64,000 bases of DNA from Escherichia coli (GTDB taxonomy: Bacteria > Pseudomonadota > Gammaproteobacteria > Enterobacterales > Enterobacteriaceae): NCBI RefSeq assembly GCF_051903065.1, contig NZ_CP178438.1, one strand, 5' to 3'. A model generated the notes under the pieces. The model saw only the letters and a list, made by a program, of their open reading frames with translations, made no database searches and was not told where the DNA came from. The translations under genes and the position numbers were made by a program. Below, piece by piece: positions 1 through 21,376 of this stretch (within the stretch, counting starts at the first letter, position 1; each line of letters begins with the position of its first letter).

Positions 1-454
1 GCTCCACCTGGGTGAAGCAGGGCCAGCCCAGCATTTCCGCCAGCAAAAATGGCGTTTGCCCATTCTGCCCTTCGCTGCTTTGGCAGCCGGTAATTATCAG
101 ATCCAGCGGATTCTGACGCTGCCATTCGGCAATATGGCGAGCGACAAATTCCGACGCAAAGCGCAGATCTGCCGCCGTCTCCAGCAATACAGCTTCCTCA
201 AACCCAAGAGCCATGAGATAGCGCAGCCAGTGTAACGCCCGTTCATCCCCCATGCTCAACGCGGTTAAAGACATCGGCGTACCGTTTTTTCTCTGCGCCA
301 ACAGTAGCGCGGCGGCAGCCTGTTCATCAGCACCGAGTAAACTTCGCAGTAGCGAAACATCCGGTCCGCTATTACCCTGAGCCGCCGCCTGCCACTCTTT
401 TTCCGCCAGCATTCCGGCATCCGGTTCGGCTTTAAACGCTAACAGAATGTTCAT
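1..454 (-). CDS. ygcR: Electron-transfer-flavoprotein beta-subunit-like protein, N-terminal part (3' end lies beyond the window start)
   Basis: Reverse-strand translation from the ATG at 454..452 gives MNILLAFKAEPDAGMLAEKEWQAAAQGNSGP..., typical of an ETF-beta fold; the frame stays open to the window edge; overlaps the ygcS stop. Confidence 0.7.
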   Translation of the reverse strand, partial: MNILLAFKAEPDAGMLAEKEWQAAAQGNSGPDVSLLRSLLGADEQAAAALLLAQRKNGTPMSLTALSMGDERALHWLRYLMALGFEEAVLLETAADLRFASEFVARHIAEWQRQNPLDLIITGCQSSEGQNGQTPFLLAEMLGWPCFTQVE

Positions 455-1769
455 TCGCACCTCCTACATTTCCCGCCGCCACCAGCGGGAGGGCTTTGGT
501 TTCTGGTGCCCATAGCCAGGTCACAACAAAACCAACCAACAACACTGCCGCCAGGAGCAATAAGGAGACTTGCATTCCCCACTGCGCCAGCACCCACGGC
601 AGCAGGCCAGTACTTACCGCCGCCCCCAACCGACTCATGGCGGTGGCAAAACCGACGCCCAGCGAGCGAATGTCAGTAGGAAAACTTTCCGCAGGCAAAA
701 TGCCCACCAGATTACTGACTGCCGAAATGGTGGTGCTGAAGAGAACAAAAAGCAGCAGCGTTAATGAACTGCCGGAAGGCAAACAGGCCATCACTACCAG
801 CGTTGCCGCCAGCAGCAAAAAACTTCCCAGCAAAAATTTGCGATGTGCCAGCAGGTGCGTCAGAACTAATCCCAGCAGCGCGCCCACAATTAACAATGCA
901 TTAAGCATCAGGCTGGCAGTCAGCGCATCTTCCAGACCAATAGTCTGGGCGATAGTTGGCAGCCAGGTATAAATCACAAACCATGGGATTACGAGGCAGA
1001 CAAAGAAGACGCTGTTAAACGCCGTGCGCCGCCAGTAACGCGAAGAGAACAAGGTTTTGATGTGTTTATGGGTCGCCGTTACCACTTCATCGCCCAGTAA
1101 AACATGGGGACCAAAATAGCGATGCACGATAGCGTGAGCTTCTGCAAAACGCCCCTGGCGCAGTAGCCAGCGTGGCGATTCTGGCGTTCCCCAGCGTAAT
1201 AACGTAATCAACAACGCGGGCAGAGCTGCCGATGCCAGCAGCCAGCGCCAGGCCTCCGGGCTTTCGCTAATAAAGTGATGTCCGGCAATACTTGCTAACA
1301 CATAGCCTACGGTCCACACCACGCTGAATGCGCCCAGCAAAACACCGCGATGGCGGCGCGGGGAAAATTCAGCCAGCAAGGTGTGACCTACTGAGTAATC
1401 GCCTCCCAGACCAATGCCGATCAAAATGCGCAGTCCAATAAGATGCTCTGGCGTGGTGGCAAAAAATTGCAGGAACGAAGCGAGCGTAATCAGCAAAAAG
1501 CTGAAGGTGAAGATTTTTTGCCGACCAATATGGTCGGAGATCCACCCAAGAACCAGGCTGCCAAGAAACAAACCAAGGAGCGCCGAGCCGCCGATCATTC
1601 CCGCCATAAACGGCGTCAGTTGCATGGCGGGCGTAAGTTGAATAATGGCGTAACCAATGACGCCGAGAACATAACCGTCGGTCAGGTGTGCGCCGAAAGT
1701 GAGCGCAGCAATTCGACAGTGAAAACGGTTAAGCGGTAAATCATCCATTCGCACCGGTGAAGTGTTCAT
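432..1769 (-). CDS. ygcS: MFS-family transporter
   Basis: ORF 432..1841; multi-helix hydrophobic protein with sugar-porter-like motifs; start placed at the internal MNTSPVRMDD (1769) rather than the upstream ORF-track start. Confidence 0.8.
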   Translation of the reverse strand: MNTSPVRMDDLPLNRFHCRIAALTFGAHLTDGYVLGVIGYAIIQLTPAMQLTPFMAGMIGGSALLGLFLGSLVLGWISDHIGRQKIFTFSFLLITLASFLQFFATTPEHLIGLRILIGIGLGGDYSVGHTLLAEFSPRRHRGVLLGAFSVVWTVGYVLASIAGHHFISESPEAWRWLLASAALPALLITLLRWGTPESPRWLLRQGRFAEAHAIVHRYFGPHVLLGDEVVTATHKHIKTLFSSRYWRRTAFNSVFFVCLVIPWFVIYTWLPTIAQTIGLEDALTASLMLNALLIVGALLGLVLTHLLAHRKFLLGSFLLLAATLVVMACLPSGSSLTLLLFVLFSTTISAVSNLVGILPAESFPTDIRSLGVGFATAMSRLGAAVSTGLLPWVLAQWGMQVSLLLLAAVLLVGFVVTWLWAPETKALPLVAAGNVGGANEHSVSV

Positions 1770-1862
1770 CTTTACCCCTTCATTGTCCGGTAATAAGAAC
1801 GGCTTCTCGCCTGAGAAGCCGAAAAGGCAACGCCCCATCATCGCGGAACGCTGCCTGACACA

Positions 1863-3317
1863 TTATTTTTCAATCGGATAGATAGTACCCGTATTCATAA
1901 TGCCGTTAGGATCGAATTGCTTTTTCAGCCCTTCCAGCAACGCCCACGCGCTGCCGTGTTCCAGCTTGCTCCAGTGAACGCGATGTTTACCAATGCCGTG
2001 GTGGTGCACCATCGAACCGCCGAGGCGAATGGTTTCTTCGCAGATGATTTTGTTGAGCGGATTGTGGTACTTGTCGATTTCCTCTTCCGGCTTACAGTCA
2101 ACAACGTTGTAGTCATAGACGAAGTACATGTTTGTGCCGTTCTGATAGCTATGAGAGGAGTGACCGCCCAGCATAGTGATGTCGTCGGCGTGCGGGAACT
2201 CGGTACGAATACGGTTAATAACGCTTTCGTAGATTTCGTGGATGCAGCTCCAGCAGCCGGACACTTCAGTGGTAAAGCCCATGTTGCCGGTTTTGAGGAT
2301 TTGCACACGTTCGGCAGCCACTTTATCCGGTCCCCAGTTCAGGTTGTTAAACCAGGTTTCGATCAGTTTGCTGTCCACGCGCTGGCACTGCGGGTAGCGG
2401 GCAACGATTTCCGCAATCCCTTCGCCCGTCGCCTTCGCAATGCGAGGGTTACCTTCAGCCATAAAGATCAGCACACATTTTCCGTCGGCAAAATGGGTGA
2501 AGTGTTGGGTGCCATCTTCAGCGTCATACAAACGAGCGATCGACGGACGATACCCTTCCACCATGATTTCACGCAGGATGTTGAAGCCGGTTTTCATGTC
2601 TTCCAGGATATAGCCGTAGAAGAGGTTGTTTTTCGGGGTGAATTTAAAGATTTTCACTGTTACTTCAGTGATATAGCACAATGCACCTTCGTTGCCGATG
2701 ATGATGTGACGAATGTCCGGGCCAGCCGCGCGGCGTGGCACGTTTTTAATACGTGTGACGGTGCCATCAGCCAATACGGCTTCCAGACCAACGACCATAT
2801 CTTCGATTGCGCCGTAGAGTGTGGAGAACTGCCCGATACTGCGGGTTGCTACCAGGCCGCCCATCTGCGCCAGCGGCTTTGACTGCGGAGAATGCCCAGT
2901 GGTGTAACCTTTTTCACGCAACGCGTTTTCCAGCACCTCCAGCGGAACGCCACATTGCGCCGTCGCCTGCATATTCTCAATATCAATATTAATGATTTGA
3001 TTCATGGCGGAACCGTCGAGCACCACCGAGTTTTCTACAACAGTTTCCAGCCCACCTTCGGTGGCGGAAGCACCGGTACGCGGCACACCGTTAATTTTGT
3101 GCGCATTCATAAAATTCAGCACACGGGAGACTTGTTCTGTGGAACCGAGTTTTACGACCGCAGCCGGAATCGGCAAAGTATAAATACCATGAATATCCGG
3201 AAATTTACGAAAACGGTCAATACTGTTCTTCTTTAATACTGTTTCATCGGTAATTACGCGATCTGCACCAACAATTTCCTTTAGCTGGTCGACAATCGCT
3301 GCGCGAGATAAAGACAT
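1863..3317 (-). CDS. ygcU: FAD-linked oxidoreductase (GlcD / alkyl-DHAP synthase-like)
   Basis: 484-aa ORF with an FAD-binding PCMH-type domain signature; same length and position as K-12 YgcU. Confidence 0.85.
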   Translation of the reverse strand: MSLSRAAIVDQLKEIVGADRVITDETVLKKNSIDRFRKFPDIHGIYTLPIPAAVVKLGSTEQVSRVLNFMNAHKINGVPRTGASATEGGLETVVENSVVLDGSAMNQIINIDIENMQATAQCGVPLEVLENALREKGYTTGHSPQSKPLAQMGGLVATRSIGQFSTLYGAIEDMVVGLEAVLADGTVTRIKNVPRRAAGPDIRHIIIGNEGALCYITEVTVKIFKFTPKNNLFYGYILEDMKTGFNILREIMVEGYRPSIARLYDAEDGTQHFTHFADGKCVLIFMAEGNPRIAKATGEGIAEIVARYPQCQRVDSKLIETWFNNLNWGPDKVAAERVQILKTGNMGFTTEVSGCWSCIHEIYESVINRIRTEFPHADDITMLGGHSSHSYQNGTNMYFVYDYNVVDCKPEEEIDKYHNPLNKIICEETIRLGGSMVHHHGIGKHRVHWSKLEHGSAWALLEGLKKQFDPNGIMNTGTIYPIEK

Positions 3318-3386
3318 AGTAATTCCTTCCTGATAATAAAAATGGAATAATCATTAATAAGAGAAAACAGAAACCACCGTTATGGG

Positions 3387-4172
3387 TTAGCGCACTAAAT
3401 AACCGCCATCAACCACTAATAAATGCCCGTTGACATAATTCGATGCCGGACTTGCGAGGAATACGGCTGCGCCCATTAAATCCTGAGTATCGCCCCAACG
3501 GTTTGCTGGAATATGATCAAGAACGCGCTGATTGGTTTCTGGATTACTGCGTGTCGCCAGCGTAATATCTGTTGCATAATAGCCAGGGGCGATACCATTT
3601 ACCTGAATATTATATTGACCTAGTTCATCACAATAAGCTTTGGTGAACCCGGCAAGAGCATGTTTAGTGGCAGAATATGCAGGTGACCATTGTCCACCTA
3701 AGTAAGAGAACAATGAACAGATATTAATGATTTTACCGCTTTTCTGCGGGATCATAATTTTTGCTGCTTCGTAGCTTAACTCAAATGCGGCGGTCAGGTT
3801 CACATCAATCATTGGATCCCAGTCGGCACGACCGAAGTCCAGCACCTTATTCAGCTTACAAATACCGGCATTGTTAACCAGAATATCGACGGTACCGAAA
3901 CGTTCGCAACAGGCGGCGATTATCTTCTGCGGCGCGCCTTCTGCGGTGATATCCACCTGCATGAAGTCCACCTCAACACCCTGTTTTTCAATCATTTCCT
4001 TTGTTTCGCCGTTATCTTTGACAAAACTTGGAATAAAGACATTTGCGCCTGCTTTGGCCAACGCCATGGCAAATGCCTGGCCTAAACCGCTATTCCCGCC
4101 GGTAACAATTGCGGTTTTACCTTTCAGGGAGAAAAAATCCATTGAGAACGCATTGAGAGATTCGATTGACAT
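3387..4172 (-). CDS. ygcW: Short-chain dehydrogenase/reductase (SDR) family oxidoreductase
   Basis: TGGNSGLG Rossmann motif and YxxxK catalytic motif (YSATK); start placed at MSIESLNAF (4172) instead of the longer ORF-track start. Confidence 0.85.
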   Translation of the reverse strand: MSIESLNAFSMDFFSLKGKTAIVTGGNSGLGQAFAMALAKAGANVFIPSFVKDNGETKEMIEKQGVEVDFMQVDITAEGAPQKIIAACCERFGTVDILVNNAGICKLNKVLDFGRADWDPMIDVNLTAAFELSYEAAKIMIPQKSGKIINICSLFSYLGGQWSPAYSATKHALAGFTKAYCDELGQYNIQVNGIAPGYYATDITLATRSNPETNQRVLDHIPANRWGDTQDLMGAAVFLASPASNYVNGHLLVVDGGYLVR

Positions 4173-4419
4173 AGTTAGCTCCAATTTCCGTAAGGCAAAA
4201 AAAAAGAAAGGTAACTTCCCCCGCAAGAGGGAAGTTACCTTTCTCATTATCTCTGGTAACTGGAGATAATTTTTAGCATAAGGGCATAACTGCTAATGTG
4301 ATCGTAATCACAGTGTAATATTCGTATTGTCAAATAATTTTAAAAAGCAGAAGCGTGATTACTCTCACACAACACCTCTGCTTTCCATGTTATTTATTAT
4401 TTCAATTACTAGAGACCTG

Positions 4420-4466
4420 AGAAAAGTAATCCACCTGAAAGGGCGGCTTACTTTTCTCTTTTTTTT
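4420..4466 (+). terminator. Terminator-like hairpin plus T-tract in the 5' leader of yqcE
   Basis: Inverted repeat gagaaaagtaa ... ttacttttctc followed by 9 T residues, ending about 25 bp before the yqcE ATG. Confidence 0.35.
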
Positions 4467-4490
4467 GTCTATTACAAATGGGAATACGAT

Positions 4491-5768
4491 ATGCAACACA
4501 ACTCATATCGCCGTTGGATAACCCTCGCGATAATTAGTTTTAGCGGCGGCGTTAGTTTCGACCTGGCTTATTTACGTTATATTTATCAAATTCCCATGGC
4601 GAAATTTATGGGATTCAGCAATACCGAGATAGGTTTAATAATGAGTACCTTTGGTATTGCAGCTATTATTCTTTATGCCCCCAGCGGCGTTATTGCTGAT
4701 AAATTCTCACATCGCAAAATGATTACTTCCGCGATGATCATTACCGGATTACTGGGTCTGTTAATGGCAACGTATCCACCGCTGTGGGTAATGCTCTGTA
4801 TTCAGGTCGCCTTTGCGATAACGACGATTTTAATGCTGTGGTCGGTGTCGATTAAAGCCGCATCGTTGCTTGGCGATCATAGCGAGCAAGGGAAAATTAT
4901 GGGCTGGATGGAAGGGCTGCGCGGCGTCGGTGTAATGTCGCTGGCGGTGTTTACCATGTGGGTCTTTTCTCGCTTTGCACCGGATGACAGCGCTAGCCTG
5001 AAAACGGTCATAATTATCTACAGTGTGGTTTACATCTTGTTGGGGATTCTGTGCTGGTTTTTTGTTAGCGATAACAACAACCTGTGCAGTGCCAATAACG
5101 AAGAAAAACAGTCATTCCAGCTTAGCGACATCCTGGCCGTTTTGCGCATCAGCACCACCTGGTATTGCAGCATGGTGATTTTTGGCGTCTTCACCATCTA
5201 CGCCATTCTGAGTTACTCCACCAACTATCTGACCGAAATGTATGGCATGTCGCTGGTGGCGGCGAGCTACATGGGGATTGTGATCAACAAAATCTTCCGC
5301 GCGCTGTGCGGCCCACTTGGCGGCATTATCACCACCTACAGTAAAGTGAAATCCCCTACCCGCGTGATCCAAATCCTTTCCGTACTCGGCCTGCTGGCGT
5401 TAACTGCCCTGCTCGTCACGAACTCTAACCCGCAATCGGTCGCGATGGGGATTGGCCTGATTTTACTGCTGGGATTCACCTGTTACGCCTCACGCGGGCT
5501 GTACTGGGCCTGCCCTGGCGAAGCGAGAACACCGTCTTACATTATGGGCACCACGGTAGGTATTTGTTCGGTGATTGGATTCCTGCCGGATGTCTTCGTT
5601 TACCCGATTATCGGCCACTGGCAGGACACCCTGCCCGCAGCAGAAGCCTACCGCAACATGTGGCTGATGGGCATGGCGGCGCTTGCCATGGTGATTGTCT
5701 TTACCTTTTTGCTGTTCCAAAAAATTCGTACTGCTGATATCGCCCCCACAACGGCTAACAGCAAGTAA
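4491..5768 (+). CDS. yqcE: MFS-family transporter
   Basis: 425-aa polytopic membrane protein; position and size match yqcE. Confidence 0.85.
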   Translation: MQHNSYRRWITLAIISFSGGVSFDLAYLRYIYQIPMAKFMGFSNTEIGLIMSTFGIAAIILYAPSGVIADKFSHRKMITSAMIITGLLGLLMATYPPLWVMLCIQVAFAITTILMLWSVSIKAASLLGDHSEQGKIMGWMEGLRGVGVMSLAVFTMWVFSRFAPDDSASLKTVIIIYSVVYILLGILCWFFVSDNNNLCSANNEEKQSFQLSDILAVLRISTTWYCSMVIFGVFTIYAILSYSTNYLTEMYGMSLVAASYMGIVINKIFRALCGPLGGIITTYSKVKSPTRVIQILSVLGLLALTALLVTNSNPQSVAMGIGLILLLGFTCYASRGLYWACPGEARTPSYIMGTTVGICSVIGFLPDVFVYPIIGHWQDTLPAAEAYRNMWLMGMAALAMVIVFTFLLFQKIRTADIAPTTANSK

Positions 5769-5794
5769 GCCAGAAAAATTACAGGAGAAAAATC

Positions 5795-7273
5795 ATGTCG
5801 AAGAAATACATCATAGGGATTGATGGCGGAAGTCAGAGCACAAAAGTGGTGATGTACGATCTGGAAGGTAACGTGGTTTGCGAAGGCAAAGGTTTATTGC
5901 AGCCGATGCACACGCCAGATGCCGATACCGCAGAACATCCTGACGACGATTTATGGGCATCATTATGTTTTGCCGGTCACGATTTGATGAGTCAGTTTGC
6001 CGGGAATAAAGAAGATATTGTCGGTATTGGTCTGGGATCCATCCGTTGCTGCCGTGCGTTATTGAAAGCCGATGGCACGCCAGCTGCGCCATTGATTAGC
6101 TGGCAGGATGCACGCGTAACGCGTCCCTACGAACACACTAATCCTGACGTGGCATATGTCACCTCTTTTTCGGGTTATCTAACGCATCGCTTAACCGGCG
6201 AGTTTAAAGACAATATCGCCAACTATTTTGGTCAGTGGCCAGTGGATTATAAGAGCTGGGCATGGAGCGAAGATGCTGCGGTAATGGAGAAGTTTAATAT
6301 CCCTCGTCATATGCTGTTTGATGTGCAAATGCCTGGCACCGTCCTCGGACATATCACACCACAAGCCGCACTGGCGACACATTTCCCGGCAGGGCTGCCG
6401 GTTGTTTGTACCACCAGTGATAAACCGGTAGAAGCTCTGGGAGCCGGATTACTGGATGATGAAACGGCGGTGATTTCTCTTGGCACCTACATCGCGCTGA
6501 TGATGAACGGTAAAGCACTGCCGAAAGATCCGGTGGCGTACTGGCCGATTATGTCTTCTATACCGGAAACATTGCTGTATGAAGGGTACGGTATCCGTAA
6601 AGGCATGTGGACGGTGAGCTGGCTACGCGACATGTTAGGCGAGTCGTTAATTCAGGATGCCAAAGCACAGGATCTTTCACCGGAAGATTTGCTCAACAAA
6701 AAAGCTTCTTGTGTGCCGCCTGGCTGTAATGGTCTGATGACGGTGCTGGACTGGCTGACCAACCCGTGGGAACCCTACAAACGTGGGATTATGATCGGCT
6801 TTGATTCCAGCATGGATTACACATGGATATATCGTTCGATACTGGAAAGCGTGGCGCTGACGCTGAAGAACAATTACGACAATATGTGTAATGAAATGAA
6901 TCACTTTGCAAAGCATGTGATCATTACTGGCGGCGGTTCGAACAGCGATCTATTTATGCAAATTTTTGCCGACGTGTTCAACCTTCCGGCACGCCGTAAC
7001 GCCATTAACGGTTGTGCAAGTCTGGGGGCAGCGATCAATACGGCGGTAGGTCTGGGGCTATACCCGGATTACGCAACGGCTGTCGACAAAATGGTTCGCG
7101 TGAAAGATATCTTTATGCCTGTTGAGAGCAATGCCAAACGCTACGACGCGATGAATAAAGGTATTTTCAAAGCCCTAACCAAACATACTGATGTGATCCT
7201 GAAAAAATCGTATGAAGTGATGCATGGGGAATTGGGGAATGCGGATTCGATCCAGAGCTGGTCGAATGCGTAA
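5795..7273 (+). CDS. ygcE: FGGY-family carbohydrate kinase
   Basis: 492 aa; N-terminal IGIDGGSQSTK actin-fold ATPase motif; RBS aggag upstream. Confidence 0.85.
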   Translation: MSKKYIIGIDGGSQSTKVVMYDLEGNVVCEGKGLLQPMHTPDADTAEHPDDDLWASLCFAGHDLMSQFAGNKEDIVGIGLGSIRCCRALLKADGTPAAPLISWQDARVTRPYEHTNPDVAYVTSFSGYLTHRLTGEFKDNIANYFGQWPVDYKSWAWSEDAAVMEKFNIPRHMLFDVQMPGTVLGHITPQAALATHFPAGLPVVCTTSDKPVEALGAGLLDDETAVISLGTYIALMMNGKALPKDPVAYWPIMSSIPETLLYEGYGIRKGMWTVSWLRDMLGESLIQDAKAQDLSPEDLLNKKASCVPPGCNGLMTVLDWLTNPWEPYKRGIMIGFDSSMDYTWIYRSILESVALTLKNNYDNMCNEMNHFAKHVIITGGGSNSDLFMQIFADVFNLPARRNAINGCASLGAAINTAVGLGLYPDYATAVDKMVRVKDIFMPVESNAKRYDAMNKGIFKALTKHTDVILKKSYEVMHGELGNADSIQSWSNA

Positions 7274-7319
7274 GTGAGGAAGACCGGGCGGGAAACTGCC
7301 CGGCCTGAACATACCTGAA

Positions 7320-7457
7320 TGGTTATCCCCGCTGGCGCGGGGAACATAAGTTCGACAACTTAAAAAATGATAACAAGTCCGGTTTATCCCCGCTGATGCA
7401 GGGAACATAATAAAAACTTTAACTAGTTCGGTTTATCCCTGTTTTTACAAGGAATAT
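7320..7457 (-). CRISPR. Degenerate CRISPR mini-array (3 type I-E-like repeats, 2 spacers)
   Basis: Repeats tggttatccccgctggcgcggggaacat (7320-7347), cggtttatccccgctgatgcagggaacat (7380-7408), cggtttatccctgtttttacaaggaatat (7429-7457); one 32-bp spacer and one 20-bp spacer; same orientation as the main array. Confidence 0.75.
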
Positions 7458-7519
7458 TAACTACACTCGATGTCTTTAGAATAAAAGACAATACGAATCG
7501 CACTTTATCAATTTTCACT

Positions 7520-8576
7520 GGCTTTGTTGAATAAATCGAACTTTTGCTGAGTTGAAGGATCAGATCACGTATCTTCCCGACAACGCAGACCGTTCCGTGG
7601 CAAAGCAAAAGTTCAAAATCACCAACTGGCCCACCTACAATAAAGCCCTCATCAACCGTGGCTCCATAACTTTCTGGCTGGATGATGAAGCTATTCAGGC
7701 CTGGTATGAGTCAGCAACACCTTCTTCACGAGGCAGACCTCAGCGCTATTCTGACCTTGCCATCACGACTGTGCTGGTCATTAAACGCGTATTCAGGCTG
7801 ACCCTGCGCGCTGCGCAGGGCTTTATTGATTCCATTTTTTCTCTGATGAACGTTCCGCTACGCTGCCCGGATTACAGCTGTGTCAGCAGGCGGGCAAAGT
7901 CGGTTAATGTCAGTTTCAAAACGCCCACCCGGGGTGAAATCGCACACCTGGTAATTGATTCCACCGGGCTGAAGGTCTTCGGTGAAGGCGAGTGGAAAGT
8001 CAAAAAGCATGGCCAGGAACGCCGCCGTATCTGGCGTAAGCTGCATCTCGCCGTTGACAGTAAAACACATGAAATCATCTGCGCTGACCTGTCGCTGAAC
8101 AACGTTACGGACTCAGAGGCCTTCCCCGGGTTAATCCGGCAAACCCACCGGAAAATCAGGTCAGCCGCCGCCGATGGCGCTTACGATACCCGGCTATGTC
8201 ACGATGAACTGCGGCGTAAGAAAATCAGCGCGCTTATCCCTCCCCGAAAAGGTGCGGGTTACTGGCCCGGTGAATATGCAGACCGTAACCGTGCAGTGGC
8301 TAATCAGCGAATGACCGGGAGTAATGCGCGGTGGAAATGGACAACAGATTACAACCGTCGCTCGATAGCGGAAACGGCGATGTACCGGGTAAAACAGCTG
8401 TTCGGGGGTTCACTGACACTGCGTGACTACGATGGTCAGGTTGCAGAGGCTATGGCCCTGGTACGAGCGCTGAACAAAATGACGAAAGCAGGTATGCCTG
8501 AAAGCGTGCGTATTGCCTGAAAACACAACCCGCTACGGGGGAGACTTACCCGAAATCTGATTTATTCAACAAAGCC
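7520..8576 (+). mobile_element. IS903-family (IS5 superfamily) insertion sequence, 1057 bp
   Basis: Perfect 18-bp terminal inverted repeats (ggctttgttgaataaatc at 7520; reverse complement ending at 8576); flanked by a 9-bp direct repeat attttcact at 7511-7519 and 8577-8585 (target-site duplication). Confidence 0.92.
7597..8520 (+). CDS. IS903-type DDE transposase
   Basis: Protein ...AKQKFKITNWPTYNKALINRGSITFWLDDEAIQAWYESATPSSRGRPQRYSDLAITTVLVIKR... matches the IS903/IS102 transposase as I recall it; probable GTG start at 7597 (the ORF-track start at 7552 is a TTG extension). Confidence 0.88.
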   Translation: MAKQKFKITNWPTYNKALINRGSITFWLDDEAIQAWYESATPSSRGRPQRYSDLAITTVLVIKRVFRLTLRAAQGFIDSIFSLMNVPLRCPDYSCVSRRAKSVNVSFKTPTRGEIAHLVIDSTGLKVFGEGEWKVKKHGQERRRIWRKLHLAVDSKTHEIICADLSLNNVTDSEAFPGLIRQTHRKIRSAAADGAYDTRLCHDELRRKKISALIPPRKGAGYWPGEYADRNRAVANQRMTGSNARWKWTTDYNRRSIAETAMYRVKQLFGGSLTLRDYDGQVAEAMALVRALNKMTKAGMPESVRIA

Positions 8577-8976
8577 ATTTTCACTTAAAGTATGAACAGG
8601 ATATCTTTATTCATAAGAACTATTCATCAACAGCGTATAGAGGCGGTTATGTAAAACCACTCATTAGCCTCAAAACAAAGACAAATTTCCAGATTTATTA
8701 CTTAATCAATGAATAACAAGCTTAAAAAATACACTGTTATTCTAAAGAAAAAATTAACAGGCATTAATTAATATTAAAAAAATAATATATTAAAATTTCT
8801 TAACGGTTTAAGGATTATACAAATAACACTTTGATTAAATTTGATTTTTTGTATCGATAATTGTGAACTTATCTGGCATGGGGAACTATTTTGAACATGA
8901 GGTGTTACGTGGATATGTTGCTTATTACAAGTACAGCTAATATAAAAACTTGAGAAAGAGATAACGGGTTATATGG

Positions 8977-9554
8977 TGGTTTATCCCCGCTGGCGCGGGG
9001 AACTCGTACTGACGGATAAAAATAATACCTTTTGCGGCGGTTTATCCCCGCTGGCGCGGGGAACTCGTCAACGTTTTTCATGTGGGCATGAGTTGGGGCG
9101 GTTTATCCCCGCTGGCGCGGGGAACTCTATTCGGCCTCGTGCTGGTCGTGACAAAATACCGGTTTATCCCCGCTAGCGCGGGGAACTCTGGCGATATTGC
9201 CTACCGCAACAAAGAAAATACGGTTTATCCCCGCTAGCGCGGGGAACTCATCCACGAATCCAGTGCAAATGAGTTTGTTGGCGGTTTATCCCCGCTAGCG
9301 CGGGGAACTCATTGTGACTACCACCGATAACCCCGCAACCACCGGTTTATCCCCGCTAGCGCGGGGAACTCCTGCATTCGCCTGCGGTTATCAGATCGCT
9401 AAACGGTTTATCCCCGCTAGCGCGGGGAACTCGCTGCCATTACTTCCCGCCAGCGTTGCTCTGGCGGTTTATCCCCGCTAGCGCGGGGAACTCGCAGAGA
9501 ATCGTTCGATTGCCCCTACATCTTCCGGTTTATCCCCGCTGGCGCGGGGAACTC
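8977..9554 (-). CRISPR. CRISPR array, type I-E (E. coli-type) repeats, 10 repeats / 9 spacers
   Basis: 29-bp repeat cggtttatccccgctggcgcggggaactc (reverse complement of GAGTTCCCCGCGCCAGCGGGGATAAACCG) with an exact 61-bp period; nine 32-bp spacers at 9006, 9067, 9128, 9189, 9250, 9311, 9372, 9433, 9494; the first repeat has t instead of c at its first base. Confidence 0.97.
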
Positions 9555-9760
9555 TCTAAACATAACCTATTATTAATTAATGATTTTTTAAGCCAGTCAC
9601 AATCTACCAACTTTACAGTATCACACAAACAACACATCCATTATGTTAAAGAGCGCTTAATCCATTGATTAAAAAGGTAAATATTTAAAATAACTCTATA
9701 CAAACTAAAATCTACCAAACTTTACCGCAATAATTTTCACTCCAACGAAAAATTAACGCC
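9555..9760 (-). promoter_or_regulatory. CRISPR leader (AT-rich, contains the array promoter and integration signals)
   Basis: The sequence abutting repeat 10 (reverse complement ...ATAATAGGTTATGTTTAGA) matches the conserved E. coli leader-repeat junction as I recall it; AT-rich tract; the far boundary is approximate. Confidence 0.7.
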
Positions 9761-9892
9761 ACAGAATTTGTAGAGAATGATAATGATTAGTCCAGGATGG
9801 GCAAAATGGAGGTTTTTCAGAGGCGACAAAGAATATAAATGAGTAGAAGTCTTTACAGGTTCCACCCATTTATAACGCTTATAAAAGTTTAA

Positions 9893-10564
9893 TCAGGCAA
9901 TATTTAGATATTTATGTGTTTGCATCGACAAACGCCAATTACGCGCAATGCAGATTTCAATGCACAATCGTGTGGCATCATCCTTTTGGCTAATCGGCTG
10001 CAGTGCAATGACTCGCGGTTTATCATCGGTCAGCGTTGCCAATAGTTCATCCAGTGCTTCAATATCGCGTACGCGCCCCACTGGATGCTTGATTTCGTTG
10101 GCTCGCTCCAGTGCCTGTGACAACACTTCATAGCCGCCGCGCATGTTCAGCTTTGGCGATACGGTAACCCAGGTATTCGGTGTGCAGCGTACCTCATGAG
10201 TACCACTGGTTTCGATCTGGCAGCTAAAACCGTTCTTTTCGAGCAGATCAGTCAGTGGTAGCAAATCATGAATGCAAGGCTCACCACCCGTAATCACCAC
10301 ATGCCGCGCGGTGTATCCCTGGCGACTAATGACAGCCAACAAGTCTTCACTGCTCGCCGCCCCCCACTTATCACTCTCTTTGGTCTTCGCCAGAATGCTG
10401 AAAAGGGAGACTTCCCGATCCTCAAGCTTTTCCCAGGTGTGTTTGGTGTCGCACCAGGCACAGCCAACCGGGCATCCCTGTAAACGAATAAAAATGGCGG
10501 GGACGCCGGTAAAGTAACCCTCACCTTGCAGGGTCTGGAACATCTCGTTAATCGGGTACTGCAT
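9893..10564 (-). CDS. queE: 7-carboxy-7-deazaguanine synthase (radical SAM)
   Basis: 223 aa, MQYPINEMFQTLQGEGYFTGVPAIFIRLQGCPVGCAWCDTKHTW with the CxxxCxxC radical-SAM cluster motif. Confidence 0.9.
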   Translation of the reverse strand: MQYPINEMFQTLQGEGYFTGVPAIFIRLQGCPVGCAWCDTKHTWEKLEDREVSLFSILAKTKESDKWGAASSEDLLAVISRQGYTARHVVITGGEPCIHDLLPLTDLLEKNGFSCQIETSGTHEVRCTPNTWVTVSPKLNMRGGYEVLSQALERANEIKHPVGRVRDIEALDELLATLTDDKPRVIALQPISQKDDATRLCIEICIARNWRLSMQTHKYLNIA

Positions 10565-10736
10565 AGCATTCTCTGTGAAGTGGATAATTGTTAATTATTG
10601 CAGATCCTGCCACAACAATCATGTCTTATTAACATTCTGTTACAGGCAGGCTTATGGCAAAAAGTGGATTAGATCATAAAGAATAAAATGAAGCAGTGTA
10701 TTATGTTTTAAGGAATTAATTAAAAGGGATTTAAAC

Positions 10737-11339
10737 ATGCTCAGAATATGCATCGTAATTATATTTATTTTCAATTTATCAGGCTGTGGATATAACGATA
10801 TTCAAACCTATGATGAGCAGGTTAACGCCTCCTGGTCTGAGGTATTAAATCAATATCAACGTCGCGCCGATCTTATTCCTAATCTTGTCGCCAGTATTAA
10901 AGGTTATTCCAACCATGAAAAAGACGTTTTGGAAGCCGTAACATTGGCTCGTAGCCAGGCTAATCGCGCCAGCAGCGATCTTCAGCAAGCTCCCGGAGAT
11001 GCACAAAAATTACAAGCCTGGCAACAGGCCCAGGCGCAGGTGACTCGCACTCTCGGTCAGTTAACGATAATTAGTGAGCGTTACCCTGAGTTAAAGGCTC
11101 AAGAGCTCTATCAAAACTTAATGGTACAGCTCGAAGGAAGTGAAAATAGAATTGCCGTTGCGCGAGGAAGATATATTAAAGCCATTGAACAATATAATGT
11201 CACTATCCGCAAATTCCCCGCTGTATTAACCGCAAAGGTCATGGATTACACACCAAAGAAAAATTATTTGCCGGATGATGTCACCGCAGTAAGTAAAGCC
11301 CCAACAATAGATTTTAGCCAGAATGCTAATGCTCATTAA
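10737..11339 (+). CDS. LemA-family lipoprotein
   Basis: 200 aa; N-terminal lipobox (LSGC); LemA-type core (...QRRADLIPNLVASIKGYSNHEKDVLEAVTLAR...); RBS aaaaggga upstream; AT-rich codon usage. Confidence 0.85.
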   Translation: MLRICIVIIFIFNLSGCGYNDIQTYDEQVNASWSEVLNQYQRRADLIPNLVASIKGYSNHEKDVLEAVTLARSQANRASSDLQQAPGDAQKLQAWQQAQAQVTRTLGQLTIISERYPELKAQELYQNLMVQLEGSENRIAVARGRYIKAIEQYNVTIRKFPAVLTAKVMDYTPKKNYLPDDVTAVSKAPTIDFSQNANAH

Positions 11340-11352
11340 GCGGGGAACTTCT

Positions 11353-12246
11353 ATGCGAAATTTTATCTTCCTTATGGCTTTCTTCTGTTCATCTGTGTTT
11401 GCCACACAAATTCCAGTACCTGAATCCCCCAAGTATGTGAATGACTTAACCGGCACATTAACAAACAGCGAAGTAAACACCCTGACCAACCAGATTAAAG
11501 CCCTGACGCAAAAAAACCACGCACAGTTGGTCGTGTTAGTGGTTGATACAACAGGCGATGAAACCATCGAGCAGTACGCAACGCGGGTATTCGATAGCTG
11601 GAAACCGGGTGATAAAGACCGCGATGATGGCGTTCTACTGTTAGTCGCCTGGCAGGATCATACCGTGCGTATTGAAATCGGTTACGGGCTGGAAGGTATT
11701 ATTACGGATGCACAGTCCGGGAAAATTATTCGCAACAGTATTATTCCTGCATTTAAAAAAGGCGACCTGGCTGGCGGTTTACAAAAGGGGATCAGCGATA
11801 TTGAAAGTCGTCTTACGGGGAATAATTTAGCAACGATAACACCGACCGATCACCCTTTGCCCTTTAGCGGTTGGTGGGCATTGTTAGTCTGGGCGATAGT
11901 ACTGACATTTATTTCTGCCAGAGGATATATCAAAACGCTGGGAGTAATTTGCTTCGCAGCTATTGTACTGGCCTTTGTTTTACCTATAGCAGGCTTCAGC
12001 GGAAGCTGGGGAGTACTCGCAACATTACTCTGCTTCGCCACACCGTTCCTGGCTGTCGCCATCGCTTTTACCCCCTTCGGCAAAAAAGTTCGGGATTTGA
12101 TGCGTGATGTCAACCAGCCATCACGCCATACAAGAAGCAATTCTTCCTCCCACTATTCATCATCGTCATCCTCTTCATTCAACAATGACAATTTCAGCGG
12201 TGGTGGCGGTTCATCTGGTGGCGGTGGCGCTTCCGGGCGCTGGTAA
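11353..12246 (+). CDS. TPM-domain (YgcG-like) membrane protein, paralog 1
   Basis: Signal peptide MRNFIFLMAFFCSSVFA, TPM/phosphatase-like domain (...VLVVDTTGDETIEQYATRVFDSWKPGDKDRDDGVLLLVAW...), C-terminal TM helices, Gly/Ser-rich tail ending SGRW. Confidence 0.85.
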   Translation: MRNFIFLMAFFCSSVFATQIPVPESPKYVNDLTGTLTNSEVNTLTNQIKALTQKNHAQLVVLVVDTTGDETIEQYATRVFDSWKPGDKDRDDGVLLLVAWQDHTVRIEIGYGLEGIITDAQSGKIIRNSIIPAFKKGDLAGGLQKGISDIESRLTGNNLATITPTDHPLPFSGWWALLVWAIVLTFISARGYIKTLGVICFAAIVLAFVLPIAGFSGSWGVLATLLCFATPFLAVAIAFTPFGKKVRDLMRDVNQPSRHTRSNSSSHYSSSSSSSFNNDNFSGGGGSSGGGGASGRW

Positions 12247-12260
12247 CAAAAGGAATTGAT

Positions 12261-13409
12261 ATGCGTATTTTTCTCTTACTTCTGATGCTATGCAGTTTTC
12301 AGGTATTCGCTGAACGATTGCCTTCAGTGAATGACTTAACCGGGACATTAACGACAGAAGAACAAAGTGTTTTAAATCAACAATTAAAGACTCTCGAGCA
12401 GCAAAACCACTTCCAGGTGGCCGTGTTAGTTACGCCAACCACAGGGGGCAAAAACATTAAACTTGCAGCCTCGCAGAGCTACGGGTTATATCACTGGAAA
12501 CCCATTGGAGAGAAGCGATACGGCGAAGGTATCTTAATTCTCGTCGTTTGGCCGGAAGGGCTGGCGTCAATGAAGATTGGACATGGACTGGAAGAGATGT
12601 TGCCGCCGGAACAAGCTGCGCAAATTGTTCGTTACCATATGCAGCCAGAATTCGAAAAAAACAATCTCTTTGCTGGATTAACGGGCGGAATTGAAAGCAT
12701 CGCACAGTTTACCCATATCAAAGCGAACCTTAGCCCTTTGGATGCTTTAGCCAATCATCTGTTTGCTAATCCGCAACGTTCGCTGCCATGTCTTGCCTGG
12801 ACACTGCTGATGATCGTTGCCATCGTTGTCCTCTGGCGATTTGCCAGCCGCCCACGGCGTGGCATATGGATGATATCGATGATTACCCCTATGGTCTGGT
12901 TTTTCTCCTTTCAGGACGATGTCATCATTCGGCGGGTATCGGTCGTTTGTTTTAGTTTATTGTTAGCAACAACCTGCAAGCAGCGTCTCGCGGTAGTTTT
13001 TAATATGTGCCGCGTATTTCCTATGATGCTGACCCCAAAAAATAAAAACTCTAAAGTGAAAAAACAAAAGAAGACTCCGCAGGTTCGTGAATCAGGACGA
13101 AATTCATTGTTTGTCGTGATGCTAATAATTATTGTGGGATGGTGCCTGGTGTTCGCCAGTAATAAAAATATTGCATTCATCTCAACAATTATTGGGTTAA
13201 TTGATCATTTTATCGGCCCAATAACCATTGCTGGCATCGTTCTGCTGATCATTGTGGCCAAATTTACTGGCAATCTTAAGCTGGGGTCAGGAGAAAAAAG
13301 CAACAGGAAAACGGGGAATCGTAATGCTCACTCTCGCTCTTCGTCGAGAAATTCTTTCCGCGGTGGTGGCGGTTCTTCAGGAGGCGGCGGTTCATCCGGC
13401 CGTTGGTGA
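12261..13409 (+). CDS. TPM-domain (YgcG-like) membrane protein, divergent paralog 2 with extended membrane region
   Basis: Signal peptide MRIFLLLLMLCSFQVFA, TPM domain, extra hydrophobic and Lys-rich segments, tail ...GGGGSSGGGGSSGRW. Confidence 0.8.
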   Translation: MRIFLLLLMLCSFQVFAERLPSVNDLTGTLTTEEQSVLNQQLKTLEQQNHFQVAVLVTPTTGGKNIKLAASQSYGLYHWKPIGEKRYGEGILILVVWPEGLASMKIGHGLEEMLPPEQAAQIVRYHMQPEFEKNNLFAGLTGGIESIAQFTHIKANLSPLDALANHLFANPQRSLPCLAWTLLMIVAIVVLWRFASRPRRGIWMISMITPMVWFFSFQDDVIIRRVSVVCFSLLLATTCKQRLAVVFNMCRVFPMMLTPKNKNSKVKKQKKTPQVRESGRNSLFVVMLIIIVGWCLVFASNKNIAFISTIIGLIDHFIGPITIAGIVLLIIVAKFTGNLKLGSGEKSNRKTGNRNAHSRSSSRNSFRGGGGSSGGGGSSGRW

Positions 13410-13414
13410 TCGTA

Positions 13415-14308
13415 ATGCGCTTAATCTTTATTCTATTCACTTTGTGGTGCCTTCCTGGGCTTGCCCAGCAAATTGCTGTGCCGGAACTGCGCCAACAGGT
13501 GACCGATATTACTGGTACGTTAAGCACTTCTGAACAACAATCACTGACACAGCAACTGCAGGATATTACACATAAAACACGGGCGCAGGTCGCTGTATTA
13601 GTAGTGCCGTCCACCGGAGACGATTCCATTGAACAATATGCAACACGCGTTTTTGATAGCTGGAAACTGGGAGATAAGCAGAGAAACGATGGTATTTTAC
13701 TTCTGGTTGCCTGGGAGGATCATGCTGTTCGTATTGAGGTTGGCTACGGGCTGGAAGGGATGGTTACCGACCTGCAAGCGGCGAAAATTATCAGGGATAT
13801 ATTGATCCCTGCCTTCAAAAGTGATGACCTGATGGGTGGATTAACACTGGCAAGCGAAAATATCGGCGCGCTTCTGTTGAATGGTGAATTATCGGAAGAC
13901 AAGGGGGATTATTACAGTATCAATCCCCCTATTCCATTATCGCTTGCTGTAATTATATTGCTGGCGGTACTTTCATATTTTATTGTTTTTACCGATCCGT
14001 CGAATTTACCCTGGATCACTCTCACTGGCGCCATTTACGGGATGGTATTCCTCTATGTTGCCGAGCCAGGACCATGGACCAATTTAATCGTTGCCTGCGG
14101 TATGTTAACACCTTTTGCGATCGTGACGCTGGTTATTTTTTGGCTTATCGTTAATAAAAAGCTACGCGCCAAATACAAAAAACTCAGTAAAGAAAGAGCT
14201 TCAAGAAAAGGTTCTTCTTCATCCTCTTCCGGTGGAGGCTCAAGTGGCGGCGGATTTAGCGGCGGGGGCGGTTCTTCTGGCGGTGGCGGCGCGTCCGGTC
14301 GCTGGTAA
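13415..14308 (+). CDS. TPM-domain (YgcG-like) membrane protein, paralog 3 (likely the counterpart of K-12 ygcG)
   Basis: Signal peptide, TPM domain closely similar to paralog 1 (...SIEQYATRVFDSWKLGDKQRNDGILLLVAWEDHAVRIEVGYGLEG...), tail ...GGGGSSGGGGASGRW; start could also be 13403, overlapping the upstream stop. Confidence 0.85.
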   Translation: MRLIFILFTLWCLPGLAQQIAVPELRQQVTDITGTLSTSEQQSLTQQLQDITHKTRAQVAVLVVPSTGDDSIEQYATRVFDSWKLGDKQRNDGILLLVAWEDHAVRIEVGYGLEGMVTDLQAAKIIRDILIPAFKSDDLMGGLTLASENIGALLLNGELSEDKGDYYSINPPIPLSLAVIILLAVLSYFIVFTDPSNLPWITLTGAIYGMVFLYVAEPGPWTNLIVACGMLTPFAIVTLVIFWLIVNKKLRAKYKKLSKERASRKGSSSSSSGGGSSGGGFSGGGGSSGGGGASGRW

Positions 14309-15681: not shown

Positions 15682-15753
15682 TCACTAGTTAAACTGAAAC
15701 TCCAGACAAACAACGCGTACCCAGGGTACGCGTTGCCGTTCTAACTTTTTTAC

Positions 15754-17406
<1,653 letters not shown>

Positions 17407-19141: not shown

Positions 19142-21376
19142 CTAACTCCCGTGCAACCGACGCGCGTCGATAACATCCGGCACCTGGTTCAGTTTACCCA
19201 GCACGCGACCCAGCACTTGCAGGTTGTAAATCTCAATGGTCATGTCGATGGTCGCCAGTTGCTGTTTGGTGTCGCTACGGCTGGCAACGCCAAGCACGTT
19301 CACTTTCTCATTGGCGAGAATGGTCGTGATATCACGTAACAACCCACTACGATCATTAGCCACCACGCGGACCACCAGCGAATATCCGGCGGAGTAGCTC
19401 TCGCCCCATACCGCGTCAACAATGCGTTCTGGCGCATGGGAGCGCAGTTCCGCCAGTTGTTCGCAATCGGCGCGGTGTACTGAAATACCGCGTCCCTGGG
19501 TAATGAAGCCGACAATCTCATCTCCAGGAATCGGCTGGCAGCAGCGCGCGATGTGGTGCATCAGGTTACCGACACCTTCAACCACCACACGACCGTTATC
19601 TTTACTGCGGTTTTGCGGCGTGTAGCTTTTTTGCTGAAGTTGCTTCAGCGCGGCGGCGTCCTGCTCTTCGGCACTCGGCTTATTAAATTGCGATTGCAGG
19701 AAGTTCACCATCTGATTGAGACGGATATCCCCGCCACCAATCGCCGCCAGCAACTCGTCGACATCATTGAAGTTGTAACGCGGCAGCAGATGTTTTTCTG
19801 CTTCTTTCAGGCTGATCCCCAGATGTTCCAGCTCGTCGTCAAGGATTTGCCGCCCAGCCAGAATGTTTTTGTCACGGTCCTGTTTACGGAACCAGGCGTG
19901 AATTTTCGAACGCCCACGGCTGGTTGTGACGTAACCGAGGTTTGGGTTTAACCAGTCACGGCTGGGGTTCGGCTGTTTCTGGGTGATAATTTCAATCTGG
20001 TCGCCCATTTGCAGCTGGTAGGTGAACGGCACAATGCGCCCGCCAATTTTTGCCCCGATGCAGCGGTGTCCGACATCACTGTGGATGTGGTAAGCGAAGT
20101 CCAGCGGCGTTGATCCCGCAGGCAAATCAACGACATCACCTTTCGGCGTAAAGACATACACCCGGTCGTCAAACACCTGACTACGTACTTCGTCGAGCAT
20201 TTCGCCGGAATCAGCCATCTCTTCCTGCCACGCAATCAGTTTACGCAGCCAGGCAATCCGGTCTTCATGTCCCGAACGTGCGCCGCCAGCAGCCGCGCCC
20301 TCTTTATATTTCCAGTGCGCAGCAACACCCAACTCTGCATCTTCATGCATCTGTTTGGTGCGGATTTGGATCTCAACGGTTTTTCCACCCGGCCCCAGAA
20401 CCACGGTATGAATAGACTGATAACCGTTTGGTTTCGGGTTAGCGACGTAATCGTCAAACTCATCCGGCAGGTGGCGATAGTGAGTGTGCACTATCCCCAG
20501 TGCGGCATAACAATCCTGTAAACGCTCGGCGACAATACGTACCGCACGCACATCAAACAGCTCATCGAAGGCGAGGTTCTTTTTCTGCATTTTGCGCCAG
20601 ATGCTGTAGATGTGTTTCGGACGACCATACACTTCAGCTTTAACGCCTTCAGCTTTCATCTCAGCGCGCAGATGACCGACAAACTCTTCGATATAGTGTT
20701 CGCGGTCGAGACGGCGTTCATGCAACAGTTTTGCGATGCGTTTGTATTCGGTCGGGTGGAGATAACGGAAGCAGTAATCTTCCAGCTCCCATTTCAGTTG
20801 CCCAATCCCAAGACGGTTTGCCAACGGCGCGTAGATATTGGTGCACTCTTTTGCCGCCAGTACGCGTTCATCTTCCGGCGCATCTTTTACTTCACGCAGA
20901 TGAGCAATACGCTCCGCCAGTTTGATGACCACGCAGCGAAAATCATCGACCATCGCCAATAACATCCGGCGAACGTTATCGACCTGTTCGGAGGAAACAG
21001 AATCAGTGTGCGTCGCTTTCAGCTGGCGGATCGCCGCCATATCACGCACGCCGTGAATAAGGTTAACGACCGACTTACCGACGCTCTCACGCAGCACATC
21101 TTCGCTGACTACGTTGGCATCGGCCAGAGGGAACAGCAGCGCCGCCCGCAGCGTGTCAATATCCATACTTAATGTCGAGAGGATCTCCACCATCTCAACA
21201 CCACGCCACAATAACAGACTGGCATCCGGATGCCCCTGCGTCTGCTGCAGACAATACGCCCAGGTTTCGGCTAAGCACTCACACGACTTCTGGCTGGTAA
21301 TACCCAGACTTGCGATCCATTTTTCCGGATCAAATTCACCAGCCTTATTGATATGTGCACTTCTTACCGCAACCAT
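19142..21376 (-). CDS. relA: GTP pyrophosphokinase ((p)ppGpp synthetase I)
   Basis: 744 aa; HD-like and synthetase domains plus TGS/ACT C-terminus; position upstream of mazEF. Confidence 0.97.
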   Translation of the reverse strand: MVAVRSAHINKAGEFDPEKWIASLGITSQKSCECLAETWAYCLQQTQGHPDASLLLWRGVEMVEILSTLSMDIDTLRAALLFPLADANVVSEDVLRESVGKSVVNLIHGVRDMAAIRQLKATHTDSVSSEQVDNVRRMLLAMVDDFRCVVIKLAERIAHLREVKDAPEDERVLAAKECTNIYAPLANRLGIGQLKWELEDYCFRYLHPTEYKRIAKLLHERRLDREHYIEEFVGHLRAEMKAEGVKAEVYGRPKHIYSIWRKMQKKNLAFDELFDVRAVRIVAERLQDCYAALGIVHTHYRHLPDEFDDYVANPKPNGYQSIHTVVLGPGGKTVEIQIRTKQMHEDAELGVAAHWKYKEGAAAGGARSGHEDRIAWLRKLIAWQEEMADSGEMLDEVRSQVFDDRVYVFTPKGDVVDLPAGSTPLDFAYHIHSDVGHRCIGAKIGGRIVPFTYQLQMGDQIEIITQKQPNPSRDWLNPNLGYVTTSRGRSKIHAWFRKQDRDKNILAGRQILDDELEHLGISLKEAEKHLLPRYNFNDVDELLAAIGGGDIRLNQMVNFLQSQFNKPSAEEQDAAALKQLQQKSYTPQNRSKDNGRVVVEGVGNLMHHIARCCQPIPGDEIVGFITQGRGISVHRADCEQLAELRSHAPERIVDAVWGESYSAGYSLVVRVVANDRSGLLRDITTILANEKVNVLGVASRSDTKQQLATIDMTIEIYNLQVLGRVLGKLNQVPDVIDARRLHGS

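Follow-up and report, generated by a model that had tools for sequence, protein, structure and literature searches.

A nine-spacer type I-E array at the ygcE–queE locus of Escherichia coli: probable CRISPR2.3 satellite with cas genes in trans and an adjacent IS903B insertion

The type I-E CRISPR system of Escherichia coli is split, and its arrays are named according to the CRISPR2.x nomenclature (PMC3903273). The cas operon lies near iap and cysH beside a different array from the one considered here; the array between ygcE and ygcF is called a 'satellite' and is served in trans, an arrangement described since 2010 (PMC2886076). It was assumed in the initial annotation of the present array, and is the published one (PMC3903273, PMC2886076). 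The ygcE–ygcF array is also a routine readout of spacer acquisition by Cas1–Cas2 (PMC11879090). It is named CRISPR2.3 by Diez-Villasenor 2010 and Almendros 2014, CRISPR2 by Touchon & Rocha 2010, and 'CRISPR II' in K-12. The K-12 array has seven repeats and six spacers, fewer than the array described here, as the initial annotation had stated. In cas-less strains such as BL21 and B REL606, which have orphan arrays, CRISPR2.3 and its leader likewise occupy the ygcE–queE interval and no cas genes adjoin them.

The stretch of E. coli DNA analysed here (the window) is 64 kb long. The features of the array locus are the following.
5795–7273, + strand: ygcE (FGGY sugar kinase), the locus-defining flank on the cas side
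7319–7457, − strand: CRISPR2.2 remnant, with degenerate repeats at 7319–7347 and 7380–7408 flanking a single 32-nt spacer, and a third repeat at 7429–7457 that is strongly degenerate
7511–7519, no strand: left target-site duplication, 9 bp, ATTTTCACT
7520–8576, + strand: IS903B (IS5 family, 1057 bp), transposase ORF 7552–8520, between CRISPR2.2 and CRISPR2.3
8577–8585, no strand: right target-site duplication, 9 bp, ATTTTCACT
8977–9554, − strand: array assigned to CRISPR2.3 of the CRISPR-II locus; relatives have an annotated CRISPR at the same place
8977–9005, − strand: terminal (trailer) repeat, the last crRNA-sense base being A rather than G, as in the K-12 terminal repeat
9526–9554, − strand: leader-proximal repeat, insertion site for new spacers, with the loop variant G on the + strand
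9555–9892, − strand: AT-rich leader 2.3 (30.5% GC), separating the stop codon of queE from the first repeat
9893–10564, − strand: queE (ygcF), the locus-defining flank on the leader side

The window sequence contains ten 29-nt repeats and nine 32-nt spacers, all within 8977–9554. The repeat starts (8977, 9038 and so on to 9526) are spaced by 61 bp in nine of nine intervals, and an array of such exact periodicity cannot be a product of chance. The coordinates, spacer count, periodicity and leader junction given in the initial annotation are all borne out by the repeat positions and by comparison with the K-12 leader. On the + strand, the ten copies read CGGTTTATCCCCGCT[G/A]GCGCGGGGAACTC; in the crRNA sense, all ten read GAGTTCCCCGCGC[C/T]AGCGGGGATAAACC[G/A]. 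The canonical E. coli I-E repeat, GAGTTCCCCGCGCCAGCGGGGATAAACCG, thus appears on the + strand as its reverse complement, which makes the minus strand the crRNA strand and places the leader to the right of the array. This orientation is indicated by four lines of evidence: the repeat strand, the match to the K-12 leader, the degenerate terminal repeat at 8977 and the location of the PAMs solely on the 5' side in the crRNA sense. Degenerate terminal repeats are a known feature of these arrays (PMC2886076).

The repeat is a 29-nt repeat of 'type 2', with the 7-bp GC-rich hairpin and the AUAAACCG 5'-handle sequence. Folding of the two repeat variants gives the same hairpin (−15.1 kcal/mol), with the variant base in the loop. 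In I-E systems, Cas6e cleaves each repeat at the base of the 7-bp hairpin, generating 61-nt crRNAs, and crRNAs from this array would be processed by Cas6e in the same manner. The repeats have no match in Rfam, either at the gathering threshold over the whole window or at permissive E-values over 7274–9900. The sub-threshold matches, to Chlorobi-1 and to the ClpQY promoter, look like chance.

The array lies in the ygcE–queE interval, with the CRISPR2.2 remnant on the ygcE side, about 0.5 kb away when IS903B is subtracted. The genes to its left are ygcS, ygcU, ygcW, yqcE and ygcE, as in K-12 and all the relatives examined; those to its right are queE, a LemA/TPM cluster, eno, pyrG, mazG, mazEF, relA, rlmD, barA and further genes as far as recD and recB. 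On this side, too, the run of queE, LemA/TPM genes, eno, pyrG, mazG and relA is shared with K-12 and the relatives. With high confidence, we identify the array as CRISPR2.3 of the E. coli CRISPR-II locus (ygcE–queE), the standard satellite I-E array of the species, with cas genes in trans. The CRISPR2.2 remnant, absent from the initial annotation, is identical in the relatives; K-12 keeps the part from the second repeat onward.

The window and K-12 arrays have the same position, flanks, orientation and 29-nt repeat family, the same T-for-C change in the terminal repeat, and a CRISPR2.2 remnant about 0.5 kb away; their leaders are 98% identical. They differ in spacer content, the nine spacers of the window being unrelated to the six of K-12. 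At crRNA-sense position 2, the window repeat has A where that of K-12 has T, six window repeats carry the loop variant GCUA instead of GCCA, and in the window IS903B is present between CRISPR2.2 and CRISPR2.3. The CRISPR2.3 repeats of the window end in ...AACTC on the + strand and the repeats of the cas-adjacent CRISPR2.1 array of strain 23CRST031 end in ...AACAC; K-12 has the opposite combination. In both lineages, the two arrays placed under one cas operon would then differ in repeat variant.

The first 60 nt of the leader and the leader–repeat junction are identical to those of K-12 at the same locus; the leader is intact, as first described. Over the 160 repeat-proximal nucleotides there are two SNPs relative to K-12, at −62 and −101, and the leader is identical to that of strain 23CRST031. 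Aligned with the leaders of K-12, IAI1, strain 48 and 23CRST031, that of the window gives a mean column identity of 98%, and the conserved leader 2.3 abuts the queE-side repeat. When the leader was scanned for the sigma-70 consensus, the single candidate on the minus strand was weak, some 250 nt upstream of the array and at background frequency, and we assign no promoter on this basis. Leaders of the K-12 type are reported to carry a promoter (PMC3903273, PMC3737337). By homology, the leader at 9555–9892 would drive minus-strand transcription of the present array. The I-E systems of E. coli are repressed by H-NS under laboratory conditions.

There is no cas gene in the 64-kb window, which is collinear over its whole length with the annotated, complete genome of 23CRST031, where the matching stretch also has no cas annotation. 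The window extends only 9 kb from the array towards the cas side (left). In K-12 and in four of the four relatives compared, cas3 and the array are about 17 kb apart, with ygcR, ygcQ, ygcP, ygcO, ygcN, queD, cysJ, cysI and cysH in between; projected from the relatives, cas3 is expected to start about 9.1 kb before window position 1. The absence of cas genes is therefore an artefact of the window edge. The earlier statement that there are no cas genes within 64 kb is literally true, but the orphan oddity that it implied does not hold, since cas3 of the siblings starts just past the left edge. The initial annotation itself had named cas genes immediately beyond the window as the observation that would count against it; they are found there in the sibling genomes, including one with an identical array, and its notable part falls. 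The separation of cas genes and array is already known, and their absence from an asymmetric window is unremarkable.

The evidence from siblings is detailed. Strain 23CRST031, which differs from the window by one mismatch in 7519 bp on the left and one in 32 979 bp on the right, carries cas3, casA, casB, cas7e, cas5e, cas6e, cas1e and cas2e, followed by CRISPR2.1 and iap, without pseudogene flags. In the draft genome GCA_013353385.1, contig SNHU01000007.1 has the same nine spacers in the same order, with the same repeat-variant pattern and flanks; IS903B is found only in the window. This contig has no mismatch to the window over 8577–12000 and one over 1–7519, and it encodes full-length Cas3 (899 aa), Cse1 (520), Cse2 (179), Cas7 (351), Cas5 (248), Cas6e (216), Cas1 (307) and Cas2 (97). 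All eight I-E cas genes are also present in GCA_053035765.1 and GCA_035563055.1, and cas3 in ECNB21-M121 and strain 48. We infer from these near-identical genomes that the source strain has a cas operon and that the array is very probably not an orphan. Cascade, Cas3 and Cas1–Cas2 would be supplied by the operon in the iap–cysH region, beside the other array and about 17 kb away, as seen in the siblings.

A true orphan, in which the I-E cas operon was lost, for example by IS-mediated deletion as in BL21, leaving the array as a non-functional relic without Cas proteins, would also account for a 64-kb stretch devoid of cas genes. An extra IS903B copy lies beside the array, IS elements are active in the lineage, and cas-E is documented to have been lost through IS elements, between two IS copies, in E. 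coli strains (PMC3903273; for BL21, PMC2886076). However, the window spans just 9 kb towards the cas side, and every close relative examined has either the operon (23CRST031, GCA_013353385.1, GCA_053035765.1 and GCA_035563055.1) or cas3 (ECNB21-M121 and strain 48). BL21 lacks the cas operon genome-wide, whereas the nearest relatives of the window keep a complete operon 17 kb away. An array of ten repeats, moreover, belongs to the size class that Touchon & Rocha linked to cas-positive strains (PMC2886076). We consider loss of the operon to be improbable, and a cas-free window that is asymmetric around the array should not be taken for an orphan array.

Even less probable is an array that is intact but dead in cis, IS903B or the two leader SNPs having abolished transcription or spacer acquisition. 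IS903B is full-length, with a perfect target-site duplication, and it lies 391 bp from the trailer repeat with its transposase gene pointing at the trailer end and so converging on the array; the SNPs at −62 and −101 are differences from K-12. Yet the leader is the same as in the IS-free siblings, and the 60 repeat-proximal bases needed for acquisition according to Yosef et al., as cited in PMC3737337, are identical to those of K-12. IS903B is downstream of the array in the crRNA sense, beyond the trailer, and thus cannot come between promoter and array; in earlier surveys, 'no apparent impact' was noted for sporadic IS elements at CRISPR-II (PMC3903273). Another CRISPR type, such as the I-F system of E. 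coli, or a chance or other tandem repeat can be dismissed. Nothing speaks in its favour, the lack of an Rfam match for the repeats being uninformative, and the 29-nt repeat is the same as the I-E repeat of K-12, whereas the I-F repeat has 28 nt and is unrelated (PMC2886076). The repeat, the 61-bp period, the AWG PAMs and the locus agree on type I-E, the type proposed from the outset.

The IS903B copy at this site is absent from 5426 complete E. coli genomes and from the identical-array genome GCA_013353385.1. A search for the combination of array and IS903B among complete E. coli genomes and contigs encoding an identical YgcS returned only IS-free siblings. As the element is missing at the site from every relative, its insertion is recent and strain-specific; it lies beyond the trailer and leaves the array and leader intact. 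In 23CRST031, 21 places match the IS-bearing query. Other elements are found near the cas operons of the relatives: ECNB21-M121 has IS421 (IS4 family) between hok and cas3 (1884–2996 of the stretch compared), and GCA_053035765.1 has an IS4-family element with a DDE_Tnp_1 transposase gene, also between hok and cas3 (8652–9764 of the stretch compared). These insertions, in the region upstream of cas3, are a further sign of IS activity near the CRISPR-Cas system of the lineage and might alter cas3 expression.

The nine spacers were concatenated in the crRNA sense and searched against phages, plasmids and 5426 complete E. coli genomes, and those without a target also against IMG/VR. They are listed from the trailer to the leader, all on the − strand.
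9006–9037, − strand: spacer 1 (oldest), no target; a 31/32 variant occurs in the arrays of six other strains
9067–9098, − strand: spacer 2, 32/32 match to an ImmA/IrrE gene present both in Escherichia phage vB_EcoM-705R4 and in a prophage common in ST131; PAM ATG
9128–9159, − strand: spacer 3, 32/32 match to a hypothetical gene of the same ST131-type prophage as spacer 2; PAM AAG
9189–9220, − strand: spacer 4, 32/32 match to a gene in the tail/baseplate region of a prophage in STEC384 and STEC379; PAM ATG
9250–9281, − strand: spacer 5, no target in the phage, plasmid, E. coli and IMG/VR searches
9311–9342, − strand: spacer 6, 32/32 match to a phage tail-collar fibre gene in a prophage of strain 40EC; PAM ATG
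9372–9403, − strand: spacer 7, no target in the phage, plasmid, E. coli and IMG/VR searches
9433–9464, − strand: spacer 8, sole match 20 nt exact (E = 5), in a replication gene of P2-like Klebsiella phages
9494–9525, − strand: spacer 9 (newest), no target; sequence GAAGATGTAGGGGCAATCGAACGATTCTCTGC

Perfect targets were found for four of the nine spacers (2, 3, 4 and 6), all in prophages or temperate phage, and five have no target. The search of each spacer against phage, plasmid and E. coli genomes that had been proposed at the start was thus productive on the phage side, with four matched spacers, and gave none for plasmids: PLSDB contains no target for any of the nine at E ≤ 10. The nine had been described as being of unknown origin; this stands for five, and no longer for the four matched to prophages or temperate phage with correct PAMs. 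The P2-like Klebsiella phages were rejected as the target of spacer 8, the match stopping at 20 nt with E = 5. Scans of IMG/VR with spacers 1, 5, 7, 8 and 9, in which every sixth position was set to N, gave no target. Spacer 2, used as a positive control, found seven contigs there, so the nulls carry meaning within that collection. With up to eight mismatches allowed, none of the spacers recurs in the rest of the 64-kb window, and there is no second match in the five complete genomes whose arrays contain these spacers.

The spacers would record encounters with temperate phages. The four matched spacers are further evidence that such phages are the main targets of E. coli spacers, here including a prophage common in ST131. 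The prophage matched by spacers 2 and 3 is present in about 600 of the 5426 complete E. coli genomes, including EC958, JJ1886 and other ST131 strains, and is located beside uvrC/tRNA-Leu. The two targets are on the same strand, 846 bp apart (19155–19186 and 20001–20032 of the EC958 stretch compared). The same prophage contains the spacer 3 target a second time, with four mismatches and the PAM AAG (15733–15764 of the EC958 stretch compared).

The PAMs of spacers 2, 3, 4 and 6 are ATG, AAG, ATG and ATG; all four fit AWG, are interference-proficient and lie on the side predicted in the crRNA sense. Four AWG PAMs would arise by chance with a probability of about (2/64)^4, near 1e-6, and their presence on the predicted side confirms both the orientation of the array and the I-E origin of the spacers. 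Cas1–Cas2 of the K-12 type uses only CTT (= AAG) and that of the O157 type uses CTT and CAT (= ATG), CAT being the commonest natural PAM of the latter (PMC3737337, PMC6568314). The operon of the siblings is a non-K-12 variant: CasA is 23% and Cas1 84% identical to the K-12 proteins, and hok adjoins cas3. Such a variant has been described (PMC3903273). Three ATG and one AAG fit the non-K-12 (E1 or O157-type) cas variant of the siblings. PAM usage is thereby an independent, if soft, indication that the present array is the work of the machinery that the siblings encode 17 kb away.

The older spacer 2 has the PAM ATG and the newer, adjacent spacer 3 has AAG, a pattern expected of naive and then primed acquisition. 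It is conceivable, though we consider it unlikely, that spacers 2 and 3 are a naive-then-primed pair reflecting real natural immunity against lysogenisation by this prophage family or, alternatively, that the IS903B-bearing strain has just lost its cas operon. The immunity reading, if true, would support the I-E system of E. coli as an active anti-prophage system rather than a silent relic; a cas operon just lost would mean that the moment at which an array becomes an orphan has been captured.

Spacer 9 shares 28 nt with an old spacer at the same locus of IAI1, ATGTAGGGGCAATCGAACGATTCTCTGCCGAC (2498–2529 of the IAI1 stretch compared), the two being offset by 4 nt. Bases 2–4 of spacer 9 (AAG) are the PAM of the overlapping IAI1 spacer, and the inferred 36-nt source of the two is GAAGATGTAGGGGCAATCGAACGATTCTCTGCCGAC. 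The same 29-nt match to spacer 9 occurs in the annotated CRISPR arrays of many other strains. To judge by this shifted overlap, spacer 9 and the IAI1 spacer must be independent acquisitions from one element.

For a satellite array of the standard kind, the second I-E array of E. coli, the main value of these data is in annotation. The spacers are shared in the arrays of only five of the 5426 complete E. coli genomes, and the identical set is found in one draft. The content is strain-specific, as had been supposed from the smaller K-12 array, and the spacer set is a good marker for strain typing. ECNB21-M121 has all nine spacers and two extra internal ones. Strains 23CRST027 and 23CRST031 have eight of the nine in order, without spacer 2. 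ECNB21-M121 and the two 23CRST strains have no IS903B at the site and otherwise differ from the window only in which internal repeat–spacer units they have. Strain 48 has spacers 1–6 with extras, and its spacers at the leader end differ. Across the relatives, the trailer end is conserved and internal units are lost; among the close relatives, the array differs solely by loss of such units. Spacer 9 is the newest spacer in all the close siblings, and there is no sign of very recent acquisition.

At + strand position 16 of the repeat, which is crRNA-sense position 14 and falls in the hairpin loop, the bases from trailer to leader are G G G A A A A A A G. As new repeats are copied from the leader-proximal one, a first repeat with G after six with A requires a back-mutation or recombination after the acquisition of spacer 9. 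The G of the first repeat is common to the window, the 23CRST strains, ECNB21-M121 and GCA_013353385.1; strain 48 has A.

Over positions 9036–31500, the window differs from 23CRST031 by 17 mismatches and 3 gaps in 22.5 kb, and over the remaining 40 kb or so by 2 mismatches. GCA_013353385.1 has no mismatch within the part of that stretch covered by the comparison over 8577–12000. This distribution is suggestive of a small patch of recombination, either in 23CRST031 or in the window lineage. Downstream of queE, at 10737–14308, the window carries a LemA gene and three genes for TPM-domain proteins. The K-12 counterpart consists of just yqcG and one TPM gene (ygcG), and relative to the window lineage a deletion appears to have taken place in K-12 at the LemA/TPM cluster.
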